This document shows positions 5,330 to 52,231 of a stretch of DNA of 64,000 nt, piece after piece. The notes under the pieces were generated by a model that searched no databases, had not been told where the DNA came from, and worked only from the letters and a program-made list of their open reading frames with translations. Within the stretch, counting starts at the first letter, position 1, and every line of letters starts with the position of its first letter. Origin of the DNA: a virus; IMG/VR virus record IMGVR_UViG_3300044858_004394, positions 5,748 through 69,747 of that record. One strand, 5' to 3'. Made by a program: the position numbers and the translations under genes.

Positions 5330-5817
5330 CCGCTTCTCCGGTACTCCCTACAGTCCGTCATGTCGATGAACGCGTTGGCCCGATCTGCCACGCCGCCATT
5401 GATGCTCTTCTGCGTCGTCGTCCGGCGGCATTCAAACGGTGCGGCGAAGGTTCCGTCTTCGTCTGCAAGCCTCCGCGTCAGGAGGACGCCGTCGGCCGCG
5501 ATGTAGAGAAACCCGACGAACGGCACGCGGAGCGACCTTGCGACCGCAGCGCCGCGAACGAGCTTGTCCATCGTGACGAGCCAAGAGTTGCCGAACGTGG
5601 TCCGGAAGTCGTCGAGAGTGATGCCGTAGCGGCACTTGCCCTCGATGACGGCAGCAACGTCTCCGAGCGGATCGATCAAGAATCCGTCGATGTCGCTCTG
5701 CCGGTCGCGGGGCAACAGGGCAACCCGCCAGCCGACGTTTGCGCTTTCCCACAAAGCGACCGCCTCGTCGAAGTCTTCGACGGAACGAAGGCCGGCAGGT
5801 GTGACGACATCAAGCAT
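5299..5817 (-). CDS. Hypothetical PD-(D/E)XK-like protein
   Basis: DIDG...VIEGKCR pattern. Confidence 0.5.
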   Translation of the reverse strand: MLDVVTPAGLRSVEDFDEAVALWESANVGWRVALLPRDRQSDIDGFLIDPLGDVAAVIEGKCRYGITLDDFRTTFGNSWLVTMDKLVRGAAVARSLRVPFVGFLYIAADGVLLTRRLADEDGTFAAPFECRRTTTQKSINGGVADRANAFIDMTDCREYRRSGCQENRQSSL

Positions 5818-12207: not shown

Positions 12208-12240
12208 GCCGGCCCGCCGCGAACCCCGCGGCGGGCCGGC
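12208..12240. terminator. GC-rich hairpin
   Basis: gccggcccgccgcg-aaccc-cgcggcgggccggc. Confidence 0.45.
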
Positions 12241-31655: not shown

Positions 31656-31854
31656 TTCGTCGTGTCCTCCGTGGGGTGGCCGCGGCCACTTCCGTCTGGT
31701 GTTCCACTGCCGCTGTCTCGATGGCCGGGGCAGGGGCTGGCTCCTCGCTCACGGCCACGCCGTCGGCGATCAGCCGCCGTGCCGTCTCGTCCTCGCACTC
31801 GACGACCTTGCCGGCGTGGTAGGTCGAATACCGCTTCACAAGCTTGATTCTCAT
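31612..31854 (-). CDS. Small virion-associated protein
   Basis: MRIKLVK...GKVVECEDETARRLIADGVA. Confidence 0.6.
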   Translation of the reverse strand: MRIKLVKRYSTYHAGKVVECEDETARRLIADGVAVSEEPAPAPAIETAAVEHQTEVAAATPRRTRRSAVPKPESRDAAGS

Positions 31855-32585
31855 GCGCCGGGAGCCTTCCATGCAGTTTTGGGTGCGCCGTTCGCGGTGT
31901 AATCGCCGACATACTGAAACACGGGGGCTTGCAGTTCCTTGCCCGGCCACACGGCCACGTACTCGCCGTGACCGATGGACACCCGCGGAGTGACGTACGC
32001 CCTGTTGCCGCCTTTCTTGAATTGGCGCCAGAAAAAAATGTCGGCGTCCGTCCTGCCGTCACCGTACTCGCCGGCCGCATTCGGGATGTCCTGAAACCAA
32101 GGCTTCGGCGTCCGCTTGAGCGCCTTGGTGCTGATGACGGTGCATCCGAAGTGGGCGCTGTCCACCTCTTGCACAGGCTCGCAGAACCACTCAATCGGCA
32201 ACTGGGTCGAGCCGTCTTTCGGCGGGGCGTCAAGCTGGCCGGGGAGAGTGAACATCGGCCGGCCGTCCTCGCGTTTGACCTGCAATGGCGCGAGGGCGTC
32301 ACAGTTGAGCGCCATTGCCATGCCGACAAGCTCCTCAACCGTTTTGCGATCCCAGAACGAATCGTAGTCGGTCGTCAGGATGTATTCCGTCGAATCCGCA
32401 AACTGTTCTAGGCAGCGTTGAATCACCTGAGGCCACAGCGCCCCCTGTCCGAGCGTCGGTCGAATCCCGAGCGGCATAAGCGCTTGCGCCCAGCCGAAGA
32501 TGTTCGCGATGGGGCCAAAGCGGGGGCCACTCATCACGCATTCGATGCGAACGTCCATGTCCGTCGAACCAATCTTGACGATCAT
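31851..32585 (-). CDS. GT2-like glycosyltransferase within the head module
   Basis: ILTTDYD (DxD), HFGCTVI, PKPWF, DADIFF and IGH motifs. Confidence 0.6.
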   Translation of the reverse strand: MIVKIGSTDMDVRIECVMSGPRFGPIANIFGWAQALMPLGIRPTLGQGALWPQVIQRCLEQFADSTEYILTTDYDSFWDRKTVEELVGMAMALNCDALAPLQVKREDGRPMFTLPGQLDAPPKDGSTQLPIEWFCEPVQEVDSAHFGCTVISTKALKRTPKPWFQDIPNAAGEYGDGRTDADIFFWRQFKKGGNRAYVTPRVSIGHGEYVAVWPGKELQAPVFQYVGDYTANGAPKTAWKAPGA

Positions 32586-32605
32586 TCACTGCCTCCAGAA
32601 AAGAA

Positions 32606-32638
32606 GATGGCGGGTACGGAAGCCCGTACCCGCCATCT
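32606..32638 (-). terminator. Probable terminator after the capsid/decoration genes
   Basis: gatggcgggtacgg-aagc-ccgtacccgccatc followed by TTCTTTTC on the minus strand. Confidence 0.65.
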
Positions 32639-36300: not shown

Positions 36301-36708
36301 TTAGCTCCGGTGCTTCACAAGACGATTATACGCACCCGCCAAATACGAATGGTAGTCACGCTTGGCCTTATCGTCTGCGGCGTTCATCTGCCTGACGAGC
36401 TTCTTTGCCCACGACCACCCCGCGTCTGACCCCCACAATGCCCACGCGATCCGGGCATTCGAGGGAAAGTTTTTTTCGCCGGGACTCCAGCCTTCTTTTC
36501 CCTTGTTGACCTGATGCCTGTCGAAGAACGCCTTCATCCTGCGAGCCGTGGTCGGGCTGATCTTCGTGCCGTTCGACAGGTCGCGAGCGCGGGCCACGCC
36601 TACTGCCGTGCCTCCGCGGCCGTGTTCTCTTCGCCACGCCAGCCCTTTCTCTGCCTCCGACCGCACTCTCGCCGGCGGCGTGAAGTCGATGTGGTCATAC
36701 CGTGCCAT
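36301..36708 (-). CDS. Phage head-associated basic protein
   Basis: FTPP...GGTAVGVARARDL...RMKAFFDRH...IAWALWG..AG.SW; I recall this domain from head morphogenesis regions. Confidence 0.65.
   Translation of the reverse strand: MARYDHIDFTPPARVRSEAEKGLAWRREHGRGGTAVGVARARDLSNGTKISPTTARRMKAFFDRHQVNKGKEGWSPGEKNFPSNARIAWALWGSDAGWSWAKKLVRQMNAADDKAKRDYHSYLAGAYNRLVKHRS
36326..36340 (-). promoter_or_regulatory. Partial copy of the early promoter motif upstream of the immunity gene
   Basis: ttatacgcacccgcc (minus strand GGCGGGTGCGTATAAT), about 30 nt before the ATG at 36296. Confidence 0.55.
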
Positions 36709-37832
36709 TACGCCGACCCCTTCACGGTCTGGGGCGCGTCGTCCACCCAGATGTCAACCTTGATGCCGGCGTCTTTAGCCGCGGCATCCTTGAGCTTGTC
36801 GGTGCCGACCAAGAGGACTCGCGAAAAGCTTGTTGCCCACTTGCCGAGTGACTTAGCGACGTACGCCTGATTCTCTGGGGTGTCCTCGCGACGGGACACC
36901 ATGACGACCTTGTTGCCTTCGCCGACAGCCTCCGCAGCGAACTCGCCCCATAGTGCAGGGTCGGCTGCAAAAGTGCGGTCGAAGTCGATGCTAATGGTCA
37001 GTTTGCGACGCTGAAGCGACCGCACGCTCCGCCGCTTGCCGCCCTTCAGCTTGAACTCATCGATGCCGCCTGTCGCCTGCGCGTCCGGAACAAAGTATTG
37101 GACGCCTCCTCCGTTTGCGGCCTGCGGCCGGCTGTCCTTGGTACTCCACGTATCGACGGCTGGGGACGCGTAAGACTGGAGGTATTGGGGTGCGGCTTGC
37201 ACCTCAAACGTGTAAGGGATTTTATCGACGACGGGCTGGCCTTCGGATTTCCAAGCGGTGCCCTTCCTGCCGATTCCAAGCTGCTCTGGCTCCGTGCCCT
37301 CCGTGGAGAAGTAGCCGCCGGCCGGCGGTATGTTGCCGGGGGCCTGCCACTGCACAAGCACGGAAGGCGGCGGCAGTTCCGGGGGCGGGCCGACCTTCAC
37401 TGGCTTCGACCAATCGATTGCCTTCATCTGCCCTTCAAACCGCTGCCGGTCGAGCGGCTTGAGCTTCCCCGTTTTTCTGTCGAGAAAAGCCCCCTTGCTG
37501 TGCATGAAGTGCGACGCGACGACCTTTCTTGCTGCGATCTGCCGCGGAGAGTCGCCGTCCTGAGAGGCAAGCTGTACCTCGCTCTTCGATGGCTTGCGCG
37601 TCGGCACTCGCTCCGGGCGATTCGCGCGTCCCTTCGGCGTCCCCGACTTGTCTCCGCCGGCGGCCCCACCCTTGCCGCCCTTTCCGCTCCCGCATGAATT
37701 ATCGACTCCGCCGCCTGACCCAGTCGGGCAGAAGGCGCGGTCCTCCGCGAGAGCGCCATCGATGAAGAACTTCCTTGCAAGCCTCCAGTACGTCTTCTCT
37801 GAGTCTTTCGTGTTACTGGTCATGTAGACCAT
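36708..37832 (-). CDS. Tagged effector: Ntox46/Tse6-like domain + HAD-like domain
   Basis: LVQWQAPG..GGYFS..EQLGI..LQSYASPAVDTWS..GGGVQYF; C-terminal ISIDFDRTF (DxDxT) and IWVDD. Confidence 0.65.
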   Translation of the reverse strand: MVYMTSNTKDSEKTYWRLARKFFIDGALAEDRAFCPTGSGGGVDNSCGSGKGGKGGAAGGDKSGTPKGRANRPERVPTRKPSKSEVQLASQDGDSPRQIAARKVVASHFMHSKGAFLDRKTGKLKPLDRQRFEGQMKAIDWSKPVKVGPPPELPPPSVLVQWQAPGNIPPAGGYFSTEGTEPEQLGIGRKGTAWKSEGQPVVDKIPYTFEVQAAPQYLQSYASPAVDTWSTKDSRPQAANGGGVQYFVPDAQATGGIDEFKLKGGKRRSVRSLQRRKLTISIDFDRTFAADPALWGEFAAEAVGEGNKVVMVSRREDTPENQAYVAKSLGKWATSFSRVLLVGTDKLKDAAAKDAGIKVDIWVDDAPQTVKGSA

Positions 37833-42866: not shown

Positions 42867-45608
42867 CTACGCCGTCCTCCTGCGGGAGCCTCGACGCACG
42901 AGTTCTGCCGGCCCGCCGTAGTCGTCATAGAGCGACAGCACATCGTCGCCGTATGTGGCGCCGGCAGACTGCCCCGAAACGACCTCGGCCACGAACTCAA
43001 GCGGGTTTGTCGTCGCGTACTCGCTTACCTTTGCGGCAATGCTGCGAGCCTCGTCTGGGTCAACGGGCTTTCCGTCTTCGTTCAGCGCCGCGGAGCCGAA
43101 TCGCGCCGACTTTGTCCACGGGTCTTTTGTTGGAAATCCGTCGTCGTCCGGGTTTCCAAAGAGCATCCCCACTCGTTCGCTGGCTGCATTGTCAACGGCC
43201 TGCTCGTCCTTGCCTCTATAGAACGATGGAACTTTGTCGCGAATGCTTGCGATGTGCTGCTTGTGTGCAGACTCGTGAACAAGCACATCCGGCAACGCGT
43301 TGCTCGCAAACTGCCCCGGCTTTGCTTTGCCAAGACTTGAGATGTTGAAGTTAGGGTTGATCGCAATGGAGTTGTTCCACTGATAGAAGGCTGCCGCTGC
43401 TTTGGGCGGAAGGCCGTCATCAAAAATGATTGCTTCCGGCTTCGCCATTCCAAGCTCAACAATCTTCGGCACCCCCTCCGTGACCAACTGCATCGCGTGC
43501 ATTGAAGGTGGTAGCGGGTCAGCGAAGTCTCCGTACTCGACGAGCATGATCCCGTGGTGTTCCTTCAACCACTGTTCGACCTCTTTCGCGTAGGCAAGGC
43601 GCTGCTCCGCCGTGTGGCCGGTTAGCTTCCCTCGCGGGTCGTCGTCACCGACCGGGGTCTTCGACGGTTCCGGTGCGGCTGGCGGCCGTGGTGCTGAGTC
43701 TCCCTTGTTTGCTGGCGAGCATGTGTTGTCCGGAGGCGAGGCGCCGGGGCAGAACGCGCGTGAGTCCTGCGGGCCGCTCGTCGGCTGCTCTGGCGCACCC
43801 GGAGGCCCGCCGGGTCCGAATGGAGACTGGCCTTCCGGGGCGCCCGGAGGAGGTTGCTGCGGCGGCTGTTGCTGCTTCGCGCCGGCAATGATCGCTTGCG
43901 CCAGCGGCTGCGGCATCGTCGGGAAGACCGCCGTCACGATGGAGAGGGCAGCTTCCGGCGTGACCGCCCCTTGGGTCACCTGCCCGAGGATCGCAAGCAG
44001 CCCGCCAACGTCTGCCGTGGGCCGCTCCTGCGGCTGAGAGGGCGGATTGACGCCCGCCACGATCTGGCGTGTCGTGGCGTCCGGCAGGCCCGGATAGACG
44101 GAGCCAAGGGCCGCGACCGCGGCGTCCGGGGTCAGGCCGCCCTCCTTCACCTGCGCGAGGATTGTCACCAGCCCGCCGACCTCCGCCGCCGGACGATCTG
44201 CCGGCTGTTCGGTCGGCTTCTCCGGACCCGATACTCCCGCCACGATCTGAGAGGCAAGGTTCTCTGGCAGCGCCGGGAAGGCGGCGGCCATGATGCTCTT
44301 CGCCGCTTCCGGGGCGATTGAGCCGGCGGCGATCTGTGAAAGAACCGCTACTAGCTCGTTCACGCTCGCCGCAGGAGTCGGGGGCGGCGCCGGGGCAGGG
44401 GGCTGGTTCGCCGCCGCCTCCAGCGTCTGCATGTTTAGCGGCGTGAACCGGGTGTCGCCGCCCTCGACCGGATTCAGGTTCTCCCACGCCCGCAGTTCGT
44501 TGACCGAAGCAACGCCGAGGCCGTGAAGCGTCTGGTAGTAGCTGGCCCGCGCGGCGGCATCGCCTCGCATGAAGCCGCGTGTGTCGAATTCGGTGAAGTG
44601 AGTCGTGTCGCCGTCGCCAAACAGGTCGCGGTGAAACGCCGACTCAAACCGCCGCAACCACGGCAGGAGCGTGTGCTGCACAAAGTCGATACTTTGCTGC
44701 TCGATATTCGCGAACGTGCTTCGCGAAAGGTCACCCACCAAATGGGGGGGTACTCGGTAGAGTCGGCATACTTCCTCGATCTGAAACCGCCTCGTCTCAA
44801 GAAACTGCGATTCTTGGTTCGTGTTCCCGAATTCGACGGGCTTGAGTCCCCCGGTGAGTACAGCCGTTTTCTGCGCGCGGTCTGGGCCTCTATGAACGCG
44901 CTCCCAATTCACTCGCAGCGTCTCGGCCGCATCGACGGAGAGGTTGTTGTCGGTCGATAAAACAAGGCCCGGACGCGCGCCGTTCGCAAAGAAACTGGCG
45001 CCGTGAATCTCGCAGGCTCTGGCAAGCCCGATGGCGTCCTTCGCAAGCTCGATTGGAACCATGCCGTTGACTCCGTCGTTCGTGAGCCAACGGATGTGCA
45101 TGATCTGATCTTGCGAGTACGTCGTGAGCCGTCCGGTCTCCTCCTGATACGTGTATCGAATTGTTCCCGTTTCGATACTTTCAACCCGCATTCGACTCGG
45201 GTGAAGGGGAATGAGTTCGCGGACGATGTCCCGCTCGTCTCGCACGATCTCATTGAACGACTGGCCGTAGATGCCGAGGTGCAGCATCTGCATCTCGCGC
45301 CACTCAAAGCTCGTCTGCCACGCGTTCGGCTTGTCGTGCAAGACACGGTACAGCGGATGCTCGCGGGCGATGTCCTTCCCGCCGTTCGCGACCCTTCGAT
45401 ATACGTGGATTGGGAGTGTCGCGACCGATTCTGCGAGGACGCGAACGCAAGCCAATACAGTGGTGCTGTTGAGGGCCGTATTCGCGTCCACCCTGACGCC
45501 GGCCGGGTTGCGGCTTCCGCCGGTGAACGTGTTCGACTCATAGTCGAACAGTGAGCGCGCCTCATAGTCCGACGCCGGGAGCCACAGGATGCCCGTCTCT
45601 TGACTCAT
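42867..45608 (-). CDS. HK97-family portal protein with C-terminal extension (3 helical repeats + tag + HExxH peptidase)
   Basis: VLACVRVLAESVATLP, FFANGARP, QFLETRRFQIEEVCRLYRVPPHLVG, NIEQQS and NELRAWENL; then about 490 extra aa. Confidence 0.93.
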   Translation of the reverse strand: MSQETGILWLPASDYEARSLFDYESNTFTGGSRNPAGVRVDANTALNSTTVLACVRVLAESVATLPIHVYRRVANGGKDIAREHPLYRVLHDKPNAWQTSFEWREMQMLHLGIYGQSFNEIVRDERDIVRELIPLHPSRMRVESIETGTIRYTYQEETGRLTTYSQDQIMHIRWLTNDGVNGMVPIELAKDAIGLARACEIHGASFFANGARPGLVLSTDNNLSVDAAETLRVNWERVHRGPDRAQKTAVLTGGLKPVEFGNTNQESQFLETRRFQIEEVCRLYRVPPHLVGDLSRSTFANIEQQSIDFVQHTLLPWLRRFESAFHRDLFGDGDTTHFTEFDTRGFMRGDAAARASYYQTLHGLGVASVNELRAWENLNPVEGGDTRFTPLNMQTLEAAANQPPAPAPPPTPAASVNELVAVLSQIAAGSIAPEAAKSIMAAAFPALPENLASQIVAGVSGPEKPTEQPADRPAAEVGGLVTILAQVKEGGLTPDAAVAALGSVYPGLPDATTRQIVAGVNPPSQPQERPTADVGGLLAILGQVTQGAVTPEAALSIVTAVFPTMPQPLAQAIIAGAKQQQPPQQPPPGAPEGQSPFGPGGPPGAPEQPTSGPQDSRAFCPGASPPDNTCSPANKGDSAPRPPAAPEPSKTPVGDDDPRGKLTGHTAEQRLAYAKEVEQWLKEHHGIMLVEYGDFADPLPPSMHAMQLVTEGVPKIVELGMAKPEAIIFDDGLPPKAAAAFYQWNNSIAINPNFNISSLGKAKPGQFASNALPDVLVHESAHKQHIASIRDKVPSFYRGKDEQAVDNAASERVGMLFGNPDDDGFPTKDPWTKSARFGSAALNEDGKPVDPDEARSIAAKVSEYATTNPLEFVAEVVSGQSAGATYGDDVLSLYDDYGGPAELVRRGSRRRTA

Positions 45609-47235
45609 ATGATCAGGATTTCGGGGGTTTTCGTGGTCTGCGGCGAGGCTTCGTTCGTCATCCAGCAGCCGACCGCTTGGCACAGGGCGACGATTCCGTC
45701 GATCCTCTCAGTGCTTTTTGCCTTGCTCGGATAGATATTTCCAAACTTGTCCTCGGCCACGGCGGCGTTGTCGGCGCACCACGACAGAACCGGGTGGTTC
45801 GCGTGCCGTACTTTGCCGCCTTGGACAAGGTTCTCAAGCGCACGAGCCGGCCCAGTCATGGTGCGACCGCCTTGTGCAAATCCTCTCACATCCACCCCCT
45901 CCCCTTGCAGAGTGTTCGCCAGCATCTGCGCGTTGAACCTGATGTCCACTCCTAGCTGACGCACGCCGTACTTCTGGCAGATTTCCACGATGTCCCTGTG
46001 CAGGATCGTGTAGTCGGTAGTGTTCCCCTCCGTGGTCCGCAGGTGGCCGTCGCGTATCCACGCGTCATACGGCACCTTGTCCCGGTTGATCCGCTCTACG
46101 GCGTTCGCCTCCGGTATCCAGAAGAACGGCAGCACATCAATCGAGCCGTCGGTGGCGTCCGGGCAGACCAGCACCATCGCCGTCAGGTCATACGTGGTCG
46201 CGAGGTCGAGGCCGGCGTAGACGGGTCGGCCGTCGAACGGCCGCAGCGGCTGGTTCCCCAACTGCCACGTTTCGGGCTTGAACCAGCGATTATCTTGGGT
46301 CGTCCAGACGTTGAGCCTGTAACGCAAAAAAGAGTTGAGCTTGGTCGGACTCCGCTCGGCCTCTCTGGCATCCGCGGCAAATGACTCGACGGTGATCGTC
46401 TCGCCGAGGCTTGGGTTCGCCATCCTCCAAACCCGCTCCTCTTTCCACGATCCGTCGGTCGCGCAGTCCTGCGGCGCAGCGTAGATCAGCGGGTAGAACG
46501 ACGGATCGAACTCCGGATCGGCAAGGCACCTTTCCGCGTACTGGTGCTGCTCCCAGCAAATCGACCGGCGATCAAACCCGGCCGTGGAGATGGACAGGAG
46601 AAGCGGCTGCTTCCTCGCGGCGCCGCCGTAACGGAGTGCGTCCCATAAACGGCGGTCGCGTTGTGCGTGCAGGTTTTTCTGGGTCGCCCCCCCCCGCCGC
46701 TTGGCCGGGGGGCGCAACCCAGTTCGTCGAATAAGAGGGCATGTATGTTCAAGCCCTCCGCCCTGAATGCGTCAGCGCTAAGTACGCGATAGAAAGAATT
46801 ACTCCTGCGATGAAGGATCGTTTTGCGACTGTCGATGACCTCTAGCTGCTTCGACAGAGCAGGGGAGGCTCGCACCATCGCGGCGGCCTCTCTGTAGATA
46901 ATTCCCGCTTGCTCACGGTCACTCGCCGCACCGTAGCACTCACAGCCCGCTTCAGAATCAGCGACGAGCATGTAGAGCGCAATTCCGGCAAGCGTGGTCG
47001 ATTTTCCTTGTTTTTTCGGGACTTCGATGTAGGCAGTTCTGTACTTGCGAACGCCCGTGGCGGGATTCTTTCTTCCGAAAAGCTCGCGGAGCATCTTCCG
47101 CTGCCAGTCCATGAGATAGAACGGCTGGCCGGCGAGGTCGCCCTTGGAGTGCCGAAGCATCTCCTCAAAGAAGCGGCACACGCGGTTGGCGGCGGCAGGG
47201 TCGAAGTCGCCGCCTTCGTCGTCAAGCGTTTCGCT
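45605..47235 (-). CDS. terL: Terminase large subunit, split by a 50-nt insert at 46670-46719 (start approximate)
   Basis: VPKKQGKST (Walker A), LLFDEL|HAQ (Walker B), ISTAG, GLDLA and RIDGIVA; the two halves are in different frames. Confidence 0.9.
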
Positions 47236-47704
47236 TGAGGAAGTCGTCAAGCTCGTCTTGTTGCTGCGATTGCGAGGCACTCAAGCCGCTCCGTGACGAT
47301 GGAGTCAAGCCAAACTCTTGCTCGATGCGGAGCATCGAAGCCGCGAGCTTCGCCATCATGGTCGCCGCCGGCGTGGATTGCATGTACTTCACCTTGCCGG
47401 AGTCATCACGAATAACAAGAACGTCAAGCCCGCGACGGACCTGATCAAGGTATTTCAGGTACTGCTCGTGCATGGAGCAGTAGCGGGCAACGGTGTCGAT
47501 GTCGGCGTTCGTCATGACGCCCATGCCGAGAAGCTTCGGGACAAGCTCGTTCCACTTGTCCAGAGATTTGCCGGTCACCCAGTCGGGCGGTGAGATGCCG
47601 TCACTGGCCGGCTTCGGCTCGTTGTGGTTGATCGCCCTTTTGCCGGGGTTGCCTTTGGCGATCTTCAGAATCGTCGGCTCTGGCCGACGGCCTCGCTTGC
47701 CCAT
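47222..47704 (-). CDS. terS: Terminase small subunit, P27 family
   Basis: MGKRGRRPEPT...GNPGKR...EFGLTPSSR. Confidence 0.92.
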   Translation of the reverse strand: MGKRGRRPEPTILKIAKGNPGKRAINHNEPKPASDGISPPDWVTGKSLDKWNELVPKLLGMGVMTNADIDTVARYCSMHEQYLKYLDQVRRGLDVLVIRDDSGKVKYMQSTPAATMMAKLAASMLRIEQEFGLTPSSRSGLSASQSQQQDELDDFLKRNA

Positions 47705-49578: not shown

Positions 49579-50586
49579 TCAGTCCAGTGCGAACAGCTTC
49601 CGGAACGCGGCGTCGATTGCCGGCATCTCGGACTCCAGCGGATAAGGATACCGTGCCTCGCCGCAGCCGAACTGGTTCAGCTTGAGGATGTTCGCGAGGT
49701 AGTCATTGTTGACGTTCGCCCGCACCCATGCCTCAAACGCCCGAGCCAGCATCTCTTCCGGCTTGGAGTAGTACTTCGCTCCGGACCGCGACCGATCCGC
49801 CTCCGCGCTCCGCTTCCGCAGTCCGTAAGGAATCGCTCGCAGCACCTCCCGCAGTCCGGCGGAGGCCGACAGGCCCGGCAGGCCAGCCGACACGCAAGCG
49901 TTGTGGTCATAAGCGTGGAACCACTCGTGAGCAAGGCACCCCGCGCCGTGCGGCTTGGTCAGGTTGATGACCTTGTGTGCCAGTTCGTAGTGGGCCGCAG
50001 CCTTGCCGTGACCTCTCGCGCCGAACGCGAGGCCGAGGCGACCGCCGAAGGCGATTGCCTCTGGCGCGAGCCGCAGGAAGTTGGCGAGGTCGAGGAAGGC
50101 GTCGTGCGCCTGATTGAGGCACAGGTCGCGGTCCTTCTGCCAATTTCCGAATTGGACGCCGTAGGGCTTGAACACCTCCATGAACCGCTCCGGAGCGACA
50201 TCGGCGCCGCCGCGATAGTCGGGGCCGACACGCGGCATGTTGCGCTCGCCGCGCAGCTTCAGGTCGTTCACCTTCTCCCGCTCTCGGACATCGTTCCACA
50301 GCGCGAGGAGGATTTCGCGGGAGTCGGGGAGCCGCCAGAACTCGGCGAGCGCCTCACGCGATGCGAACTCCTTCAGCCGGCGGTGGCCGCGGTCGCCCTT
50401 CTTCTCGATCCACCACAGGCTCGCCGCGCGGTGGCGGTAGGCCGCGAACACGGCCGGCTTGGCATCGCCGCGGGGCTTCTTCGGCTTCGCCGCGTCGCCT
50501 TCCGGCTTGTTGACGCGTGGGGCCGCGCGGTCCTTTTTTGCACCTGCGATCTTCTGCCCGAAGTCACCGATCACTGCGTTGTTCAT
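49579..50586 (-). CDS. LPD1-domain (large polyvalent protein) protein
   Basis: DFGQKIAGAKKD, GVQFGNW, LAFGARG, AAHYE, GCLAHEWFHA, EMLARAFE and YPYP motifs. Confidence 0.8.
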   Translation of the reverse strand: MNNAVIGDFGQKIAGAKKDRAAPRVNKPEGDAAKPKKPRGDAKPAVFAAYRHRAASLWWIEKKGDRGHRRLKEFASREALAEFWRLPDSREILLALWNDVREREKVNDLKLRGERNMPRVGPDYRGGADVAPERFMEVFKPYGVQFGNWQKDRDLCLNQAHDAFLDLANFLRLAPEAIAFGGRLGLAFGARGHGKAAAHYELAHKVINLTKPHGAGCLAHEWFHAYDHNACVSAGLPGLSASAGLREVLRAIPYGLRKRSAEADRSRSGAKYYSKPEEMLARAFEAWVRANVNNDYLANILKLNQFGCGEARYPYPLESEMPAIDAAFRKLFALD

Positions 50587-50668
50587 TCTGTCCTCCCTTC
50601 TGGACACCTGTTATACGCATCTGCCTACAAACGGTTCGCCACGGTTTTCTGCCGGCGGCGGCGGTGCG

Positions 50669-51346: not shown

Positions 51347-52231
51347 TCAGCCCTGCCCGCCGTCGCCGCCGCCGCCTTCGGCGGCAGCGGACGCGGCGTC
51401 ATACTTCCGGGCGAGCCGCAAGACTTCCCGGACATCGGAGTCGAGGTTGTCGGCCCCGAGCGCCCCGAACTTCTTCCGGCCGTACTTCCGGGTTCCGAAC
51501 CCCTCATAAGTCCAGCCGAGGGAGAAGACGAGCCGAGCGACTTCCTTCTCACCGGCACCGTTGGTCCGGAACAAGCCTCCCGCCTTGGCGGGGTTGTTCC
51601 ACGGCACCGGAGCGGAGGACTCGACAGCCTTCTCCACCAGCCCGACGCAGAGCCGGACCCACGCGCTGATCTTCACCGCGTTGAGGCTCGCGCCGAAGAC
51701 GCGGAACTCGACGGTCGGCTTCCGGCCGGTCTTCAGGTTCAACAAGTGGTACCGATCAGACTCGGAGGCCCGGATCGCCCGCCCGGCGCTCCCGTATTGC
51801 TTGATCGACTTGCACCAGTGGGTTCCGTACCGGCCGCCGACTCCGCGCTCGCGAGAGAGGGTTCCGGTGACCGCGTACAGCGCCTTCTCGTGGTTCGCGA
51901 CAAGCTGCGCCAGCTTTCGCTTTGCGGCCTTGTTGCTCTTGTCGAAGTCGATGTGAACGTGAAGGCCGCACGAGGCGTTGACCTGACCGCCGCGAGCCTT
52001 GATCTCGGCGACGACCGCGTGAAGCTGACGCAGGCCATCGGCCCCGTCGAGGATCGGCGAGACGAACTCGACGCCGAACCGCCCGCTGTTGGGCGGGACA
52101 ATCGAAGGGTCAGCGTCCGCGAGCCAGCCCGCCGGGAGCCACGGCACCGGAGCGCCGTTTCCGTGGGGGCCGCGGTTGACCGAACCGACCGGCATGTGGG
52201 TTTCAATCTCGACTGCAAAGCGAAGTGCCAT
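51347..52231 (-). CDS. Phage amidoligase (COOH-NH2 ligase)
   Basis: FAVEIE, EFVSPIL, SCGLHVH, RYHLLN and TVEFR motifs. Confidence 0.88.
   Translation of the reverse strand: MALRFAVEIETHMPVGSVNRGPHGNGAPVPWLPAGWLADADPSIVPPNSGRFGVEFVSPILDGADGLRQLHAVVAEIKARGGQVNASCGLHVHIDFDKSNKAAKRKLAQLVANHEKALYAVTGTLSRERGVGGRYGTHWCKSIKQYGSAGRAIRASESDRYHLLNLKTGRKPTVEFRVFGASLNAVKISAWVRLCVGLVEKAVESSAPVPWNNPAKAGGLFRTNGAGEKEVARLVFSLGWTYEGFGTRKYGRKKFGALGADNLDSDVREVLRLARKYDAASAAAEGGGGDGGQG

Follow-up and report, generated by a model that had tools for sequence, protein, structure and literature searches.

The window analysed here, 64,000 nucleotides (nt) of one strand of the virus record IMGVR_UViG_3300044858_004394 in IMG/VR (positions 5,748 to 69,747 of that record), carries on its minus strand a gene for the large terminase subunit (terL, ca. 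47280 to 45605), with the gene of the small terminase subunit on one side and that of the portal protein on the other; the reading frame of terL is broken by a short GC-rich hairpin insert, the subject of this work. The full record (69,747 nt) was rated 100% complete by CheckV and is an unbroken array of long open reading frames (ORFs). Minus-strand order at the break: TTC GAC GAA CTG, 47 nt, second CTG, CAC GCA CAA. The frame-breaking insert was recounted by script as 50 nt (46719–46670); it follows the Leu codon CTG of the Walker B motif and ends in the second CTG, exactly as an earlier note on this DNA had described it. The site is composed as follows: last sense codon CTG (46720–46722; Leu of ..FDEL), the proposed take-off codon, which forms the first 3 nt of the stem; hairpin CTGGG...CCCAG of 44 nt (46679–46722), recognised by folding and by the covariance model described below as a member of a family of 20-base-pair (bp) hairpins; A-rich single-stranded tail AAAAAC (46673–46678); second CTG (46670–46672), the final 3 nt of the insert and the proposed landing triplet; codon CAC (46669–46667), directly after the second CTG, at which decoding is proposed to resume.

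The 5' part of terL (46723–47280, minus strand) encodes the ATPase domain up to Walker B; its ORF (46486–47280) matched TerL_ATPase (PF03354, E 9.6e-17) over profile positions 1–133 of 178 only. The 3' part (45605–46669, minus strand) lies in the +2 frame relative to the 5' part, is intact and free of stops, and encodes the rest of the ATPase domain and the nuclease domain; translation from 46672 to 45605 matched TerL_nuclease (PF20441, E 9.9e-38). Alignment to a solved large terminase (PDB 6z6d) placed the break directly behind the hhhhDE strand, for which the label Walker B is our own naming. The junction was examined by tblastn with the two halves searched separately (80 viral and 5 genome loci; relatives of ca. 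70% identity); in every locus with both halves (83/83), a His codon stands straight after the Leu codon (L|H), and the insert is absent from the uninterrupted relatives. Because the 83 related loci are colinear at L|H, removal of exactly 50 nt restores the colinearity of terL, in agreement with the earlier note.

The 96-nt region around the hairpin folded with −46.4 kcal/mol (z −3.9), and none of 200 shuffles folded as well, so that the strong stem said to be opened by the first CTG was recovered. The 41-nt hairpin core occurs once in the window (0 expected by chance) and once in the whole record. A covariance model of the hairpin (R1; 45 positions, 20 pairs) was run on the window and 85 loci (530 kb) and gave 11 sense-strand copies, all inside terL and none elsewhere; the copy of the window scored 59.3 bits on the sense and 37.7 bits on the antisense strand. 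No match of the insert to a known RNA family was found in Rfam at E up to 1.

The stretch is present in 24 listed lake-water runs, 9 of which (2020–2024) contain half or more of its words; assembled Logan contigs of four runs were used for the sample check. Contig X2 (1850 nt, independent run, 2024) covers 46300–47100 free of gaps with the length of the insert unchanged, and differs from the window by three substitutions (plus strand 46688, 46695 and 46702), all in the hairpin; contig X1, from a 2020 run, shares the first two and ends in the loop. The substitutions of X1 and X2 break the run of nine G (G9) of the record, improve the stem and remove bulges of the window's copy, and the relatives carry G5–G6 runs. 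An indel in the G9 tract, which had been put forward as an alternative origin of the frame break, was discarded on account of these same-length variants and of the shorter runs in relatives; the record's G9 run could reflect a minority form or an error of the consensus. Contigs end inside the hairpin in three of the four runs, which could speak for an artefact of assembly or sequencing; against this, one independent contig crosses the site without a gap and 15 related variants come from many unrelated assemblies, and the probability of an artefact is regarded as negligible. Loose contig ends at 46659 belong to related phages that are uninterrupted at this junction, in the same runs. An insert-less form of the window's own phage was not seen in the contigs of the four runs, which proves nothing with three of them ending in the hairpin.

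Further copies were collected by pattern scans of the viral collection and one scan of the metagenome collection, followed by R1 and by reading of the context. Among the matches listed there are at least 15 distinct variants at no fewer than four sites, three in terL and one in a capsid-adjacent gene; host genes beyond these two may exist. Site i: YIE-CTG | CCN-AAG, just before the P-loop (Walker A); L029, L313, L031/L034 and L149/L292 with inserts of 49, 51, 52 and 52 nt, respectively. Site ii, that of the window: FDE-CTG | CAC, after Walker B; window, L308 and L088, 50 nt in each. Site iii: CTC-TGG | GAY-GCN, nine residues past site ii; L098 (50 nt), L037/L040, L060 and L063 (51 nt each), L059 and L061/L062 (52 nt each). 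Site iv: TTC-TGG | GAC/AGC-CAA, in a gene flanked by those of the major capsid protein and the head-tail connector; the L128 type, L153 and the L180 type, 50 nt. The site-iv gene carries the element in 5 of the 80 loci fetched; its homologue in the window (31851–32585, minus strand; tblastn 58% identity over residues 17–259) is uninterrupted and matched no Pfam family. The carriers form one group of related lake phages, every copy has the sense orientation, and each of six whole phage records searched contains one copy only. In L207 (contig shared with L054) the element is in the capsid-adjacent gene and terL is uninterrupted; in L292 it is in terL and the capsid-adjacent gene is uninterrupted. 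No record with two copies was seen.

All 15 variants adopt the same fold: a 20-bp stem opening with CTGGG, a loop of 4–7 nt and a stem end CCCAG or CCTAG. The last exon codon (CTG, or C+TGG) supplies the first 3–4 nt of the stem in 15/15, and the mostly A-rich tail measures 7–11 nt to the resume codon, that is, 4–8 nt ahead of the last triplet of the insert. At site ii the tails read AAAAAC (window), AAAAAA (L308) and ACAAGC (L088); the three variants share the position of the insert, its length and the CTG/CTG pair, although loops, tails and stems differ. A hammerhead-like CUGAUGA in the loop of L059 was rejected by eye: it is limited to one sub-variant and not shared by the other loops. In unrelated prophage-like records, perfect palindromes of 44 nt that likewise run from CTGGG to CCCAG lie at ORF 3' ends (L101:6436–6479, L296:2100–2143, L299:3920–3963, L189:3117–3160; R1 32–36 bits, equal on both strands); these may be distant kin or the source of the family, or else unrelated terminator-like hairpins.

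Structure is preserved on one strand. Double compensatory changes were found in 6 of the 20 stem pairs (first five sequences compared). The sense fold is more stable than the antisense fold in 15/15 variants by 6–15 kcal/mol (window hairpin: −41.8 vs −33.3 kcal/mol), owing to the G·U pairs (42 of 296), which occur on the sense strand only. It is concluded that the stem structure is selected on the mRNA strand.

The insert lengths of 49–52 nt cover all residues modulo 3, and site iii alone has 50, 51 and 52 nt. The incoming frame contains stops in 12/15 variants. Frameshifting is excluded in L031, whose incoming frame meets a stop at codon 6 and whose outgoing frame is closed by a TAG abutting the final 3 nt of the insert; at site iv no more than 9 nt of the outgoing frame are open ahead of the resume codon; L088, which shares the site of the window, has a TGA two codons past CTG; and in L308 a TAA of the outgoing frame falls within the loop. 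From the three length classes together with the stops it follows that neither a single frameshift nor stop readthrough can be the general solution. In the window itself the incoming and outgoing frames are both open across the insert, and frame 0, as had been noted earlier, meets no stop after the take-off codon and stays open to 46486. This openness, the G9 run of the record and the in-frame A AAA AAC of the L308 tail would suit translation of the insert by a −1 shift (slippage of the ribosome or of RNA polymerase at the G run or at A AAA AAC), by which 17 extra residues would be added after Walker B. The shift would work for the window's sequence alone and is excluded by the stops in both frames of L088, L031 and site iv; moreover, in independent contigs of the window's phage the insert keeps its length without G9, the TAA of L308 stands in the outgoing frame, L031 excludes any single shift, and 17 residues beside the catalytic Glu would be new in every lineage. 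Translation of the insert is accordingly judged very improbable. Production of the split terL as two polypeptides, or by re-initiation, was rejected: sites iii and iv offer neither a start codon nor a ribosome-binding site, and the breaks fall within the ATPase core.

The genes that carry the element were found to be intact and under purifying selection. No stop occurs in the terL 3' part of any carrier; dN/dS is 0.05–0.33 at dS 0.62–1.46 (10 carriers, 45 pairs, 326–343 codons downstream of all sites) and 0.15–0.27 for the window against the other carriers. The identity of inserts and of their 150-nt flanks was 76–84% vs 69–84% at site ii, 56–75% vs 75–86% at site i and 84–94% vs 79–93% at site iii; the element has diverged along with intact host genes, or faster, and this divergence, matching or exceeding that of the flanks, counts against a recent knockout. 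The data taken together call for the insert to be either removed after transcription or skipped in translation.

The sites are scattered on the terL tree (3' part, 87 rows, quick maximum likelihood): the distribution of site iii takes 4 changes, of which at least 3 fall on well-supported branches, and that of site i takes 3, at least 2 of them so supported. Apart from the insert, L031 and L016 are colinear with 94–97% identity. Identity jumps at the insert from 89% upstream to 97.6% downstream in L059 vs L007; the corresponding values are 84.5% and 89.5% for L060 vs L012, and 86% and 91.6% for L211 vs L212. Near the insert L060 is closer to other site-iii carriers than to its own nearest relative, and the same site-iv element stands in two gene backgrounds with a downstream identity of only 69%. 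These observations are read as spread by recombination between related phages, possibly with precise loss. No member of the HNH family was detected among the nine neighbouring ORFs of the window at E up to 0.001; no transposase was identified, no search aimed at transposases having been made; the best hit of the element in five candidate host metagenome-assembled genomes (MAGs; best 150 candidates per genome scored), three of which are labelled Planctomycetota, had E 0.042, so that a host repeat was not found within this scope. The data are those of a small mobile hairpin element that has entered conserved sites of essential phage genes. Beside it, L032 (730–1743; also L052 and L056) contains a 1014-nt in-frame insert in the terL P-loop (..KKQGK | ... 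THN | STTLAG) of ca. 338 residues ending in His-Asn before Ser, which looks like an intein with a middle part of homing-endonuclease size; together with the hairpins, this makes terL a hot spot of mobile elements in this phage group.

The same patchy distribution, the near-identical carrier/non-carrier pairs such as L031 and L016, the identity jumps that point to spread by recombination and the insert-less relatives in the same runs (loose ends at 46659) would also be found if the element were a selfish, damaging insertion that knocks the gene out, the carriers living by co-infecting helpers or by rare precise deletion between the 3-nt repeats, or being decaying prophages. The earlier note had considered such an inactivating insertion, resembling a miniature inverted-repeat transposable element (MITE); mobility is borne out by a family occupying four sites in two genes, inactivation is contradicted by carrier genes intact under purifying selection. 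Inserts are as diverged as their flanks with stems kept by compensatory change, and they have persisted through dS of ca. 1 while ca. 340 downstream codons stayed open at the dN/dS given above. Apart from the hairpins and the one intein-like insert type (three loci), no other type of lesion was seen in the 85 loci; the record of the window is complete with its long ORFs unbroken; assemblies of runs from 2020 (X1, as far as the loop) and 2024 (X2, whole site) both contain the carrier with its insert; and no reservoir of copies was found in the phage records or the five MAGs searched. Knockout by a damaging insertion is thus considered unlikely.

The explanation preferred here, to which an even chance is given on comparative grounds, is a mobile hairpin element, similar to the byps of mitochondria discussed below, that would be skipped by programmed translational bypassing; the insert would stay in the DNA and, as we infer, in the mRNA, where it would be left undecoded, its removal taking place on the ribosome. 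The course of events would be as follows. The ribosome would reach the CTG at the base of the stem carrying peptidyl-tRNA-Leu and stall on the stem; codon-anticodon pairing at the first CTG would be lost; the mRNA would slide while the very stable hairpin refolds behind the ribosome; the tRNA would re-pair with the identical CTG, 6 nt beyond the hairpin; and decoding would restart at CAC to give a normal large terminase. Sliding driven by refolding of a hairpin behind the ribosome was argued for T4 gene 60 in a preprint. Bypassing is favoured because the last sense codon invariably lies within the base of the stem, as in the gene 60 take-off site; because the last triplet of the insert repeats the last exon codon (5/15 variants identical) or nearly does so (two of three positions in 5 more); because the pre-landing stretch is short, unstructured and A-rich, as in byps and gene 60; and because no conserved motif marks the 3' boundary for a nuclease. 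The near-constant 4–8 nt from the foot of the hairpin to the landing triplet would, speculatively, make the refolded hairpin a ruler similar to a Shine-Dalgarno (SD) helix. The CTG-to-CTG hop of the earlier note proved to be the best fit to the comparative data, L088 and L308 having 50 nt with CTG/CTG. The wider proposition, namely a portable and context-independent bypass family, the first byp-like set outside mitochondria, with bacterial ribosomes routinely hopping a 20-bp, 44-nt hairpin that serves as motor and ruler, and with spread by recombination into conserved motifs in the manner of inteins and homing introns, is held more tentatively, at somewhat less than an even chance.

The triplets were compared site by site. 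At site i the last triplets, set against CTG, are CTG once, CTT, and CCG twice; at site iv the pairs are TGG/TGG and TGG/TGC (TGC in two rows). A partial hop was rejected for site ii, since only CTG/CTG is consistent across the window, L308 and L088. For site i, a sub-model with a partial hop and pairing at Pro codons (CCG..CCG, CCA..CCA) would fit 3/4 variants and would leave 5–6 extra residues directly before the P-loop. For site iii, the corresponding sub-model would have five codons read into the stem, take-off before the TGA of the loop and landing at the foot of the hairpin; suitable pairs (GGC..GGC, GGC..GGT, and AGC..AGA in L098) are present in 6/6 variants. It would explain the lengths of 50, 51 and 52 nt and the constant AGA, implies an insertion of 8 residues and has a single co-variation as its basis. 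In L088 and at site iv the second codon past take-off is a stop. CTG is missing from the 3' half of the gap, so that no premature landing site is offered, the sequences being too few and too short for significance.

Several observations weigh against skipping of the insert by the ribosome. All six variants of site iii end with AGA against a TGG take-off codon; a full hop there would proceed without a match, and the second sub-model, that of a partial hop, is needed. No variant has a stop directly after the take-off codon, the next codon being GGT, GGG, GCT or GTC (15/15); the window's insert is without any stop, and its next codon GGT is only moderately rare (8% of the Gly codons of the window). 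The tails AAAAAC, AAAAAA and ACAAGC contain no SD-like motif (GAG/GGAG), and the element is carried in four unrelated upstream peptide contexts, so that a shared nascent-peptide signal is unlikely; of the signals of gene 60, the SD-like one is thereby missing and the nascent peptide probably so. Instead of landing codons, the 3-nt repeats may represent duplications of the target site made on insertion, and the retention of CTG in the three site-ii variants at ca. 20% divergence is not significant alone. None of the 24 listed runs with the stretch is on record as RNA. We know of no experimental precedent for a hop of a bacterial ribosome over a 20-bp hairpin of ca. −42 kcal/mol.

The absence of a matched landing triplet at site iii would be of no consequence if the insert were excised at the RNA level, i.e., if host or phage enzymes were to cut a tiny intervening sequence from the mRNA and ligate the ends, as in a micro-intron of a new kind; splicing would not require such a match, all three length classes and the internal stops would be tolerated, and the selection of structure on the sense strand would be accounted for. 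Other properties of the boundaries speak against it: the 3' boundary lies 7–11 nt past the stem in a variable tail with no conserved motif; the 5' boundary lies 3–4 nt inside the stem, so that the cuts would be asymmetric, unlike those of helix-guided nucleases; and excision would give no reason for the 3-nt repeats at sites i, ii and iv. Self-splicing introns possess a catalytic RNA core of at least 200 nt, and inteins are in-frame protein-splicing domains. With 50 nt the insert is far under any self-splicing intron and, as stated, has no Rfam match; group I and group II introns and inteins were ruled unfit by this length, by lengths that are not multiples of 3 and by the stops. Endonuclease-ligase splicing of mRNA of this kind is not known in bacteria. 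Excision is rated improbable, slightly more so than the damaging insertion.

The proposed bypass element was compared with known systems as described in the literature. The byps of Magnusiomyces capitatus mitochondria are 27–55 nt long, have AU-rich 3' parts, spread like GC clusters and tolerate imperfect codon matches; re-pairing in the P site has latitude. Like the present family they are short, frame-breaking, GC-rich structured inserts with an A/U-rich 3' part that occupy several sites and genes and spread as miniature mobile elements; in both, take-off and landing triplets are identical or agree at two of three positions; byps need no particular upstream peptide, and the present family probably needs none either. 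They differ in that byps act on a mitochondrial ribosome with an unused codon in the A site and are present in 81 copies per genome, whereas here the setting is bacterial/phage, the codons are ordinary, if rare, sense codons, there is one copy, and a uniform 20-bp stem always includes the last sense codon.

T4 gene 60 shares with the site of the window the 50-nt gap, matched codons, take-off in a stem-loop, an A-rich pre-landing stretch, an essential phage gene and a link to mobile DNA. Its homologues are all in topoisomerase genes with MobA. The gene 60 cassette interrupts the gene of the topoisomerase II large subunit at Gly46/Asp45, in contrast to terL and a capsid-adjacent gene here; it has an SD-like GAG 5–6 nt before landing, flanked by A/U, a stop at take-off and a nascent-peptide signal, whereas the present family lacks the SD-like GAG, the direct stop and probably a shared peptide; it is adjacent to the HNH endonuclease gene mobA, whereas no HNH was found in the nine ORFs examined here and carriers and non-carriers are colinear except for the insert. 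The stem of the present family is much longer than that of gene 60, and there is no sequence similarity. In the Streptomyces phage phiHau3, frame-breaking non-coding blocks likewise lie in the large terminase gene, and bypass was proposed with mass spectrometry in E. coli; those blocks measure 10 nt, begin with the rare UUA and have been interpreted as sensors of tRNA availability, as opposed to a multi-site family of 50-nt hairpins with no rare-codon trigger. The element works most like a byp and is partly built like the gene 60 take-off site, and in the comparison it fell outside both groups. No report of 50-nt hairpin inserts in terL was found in the full-text literature searched, most subscription journals lying outside it.

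Palindromic MITEs derived from repetitive extragenic palindromes (REP/RAYT) and from IS200/IS605 are multi-copy, dispersed and mostly intergenic, and have a cognate Y1 transposase. The present element shares with them a short hairpin, strand-specific structure, a short fixed target (CTG or CTGG) and a right boundary ca. 7–11 nt past the foot of the hairpin; it differs in being single-copy, confined to coding sequence of essential genes and found in sense orientation only, with no copies among the best 150 candidates scored in each of the five MAGs.

Other features of the window: small terminase subunit, 47222–47704, minus strand (PF05119); portal protein, 42867–45683, minus strand, 938 residues, overlapping the end of terL and bearing a long C-terminal extension (PF04860 on residues 75–402), the C-terminal half, in which Pro/Ala-rich repeats and an HExxH-like string occur, being possibly a fused second function; ORFs 36708–37832 and 49579–50607, minus strand, one with Ntox46 (E 1.1e-9) and the other with the polyvalent-protein domains LPD1 and LPD5; ORF 51347–52231 with Amidoligase_2; perfect GC-rich hairpins of 15 bp (32605–32638) and 14 bp (12208–12240) in short intergenic gaps of the minus-strand structural module, which are outside the R1 family and probably terminator-like.

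The element belongs to a real, conserved mobile family that interrupts essential phage genes without killing them, and most likely represents a new bacterial-phage variant of programmed bypassing. Among bacterial systems, bypassing has so far been studied deeply for gene 60 and its homologues, i.e., for one gene, with phiHau3 as a candidate, and the only multi-site family is mitochondrial. If the proposal is true, neither a tailored nascent peptide nor an SD-like motif is indispensable for bypassing by a bacterial ribosome, and the 15 variants would constitute a natural series, with three gap lengths at one site and with matched, near-matched and unmatched landing triplets, from which the determinants of take-off and landing could be learned. 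Should the insert instead be excised from RNA, this would be a new kind of bacterial mRNA splicing, of even greater weight. Bypassing of the hairpin, if confirmed, would further define a new class of selfish elements residing in conserved motifs of phage genes, and metagenomic phage terminase genes recorded as "split" or "pseudogenised" may be intact, which calls for caution on the part of annotators.

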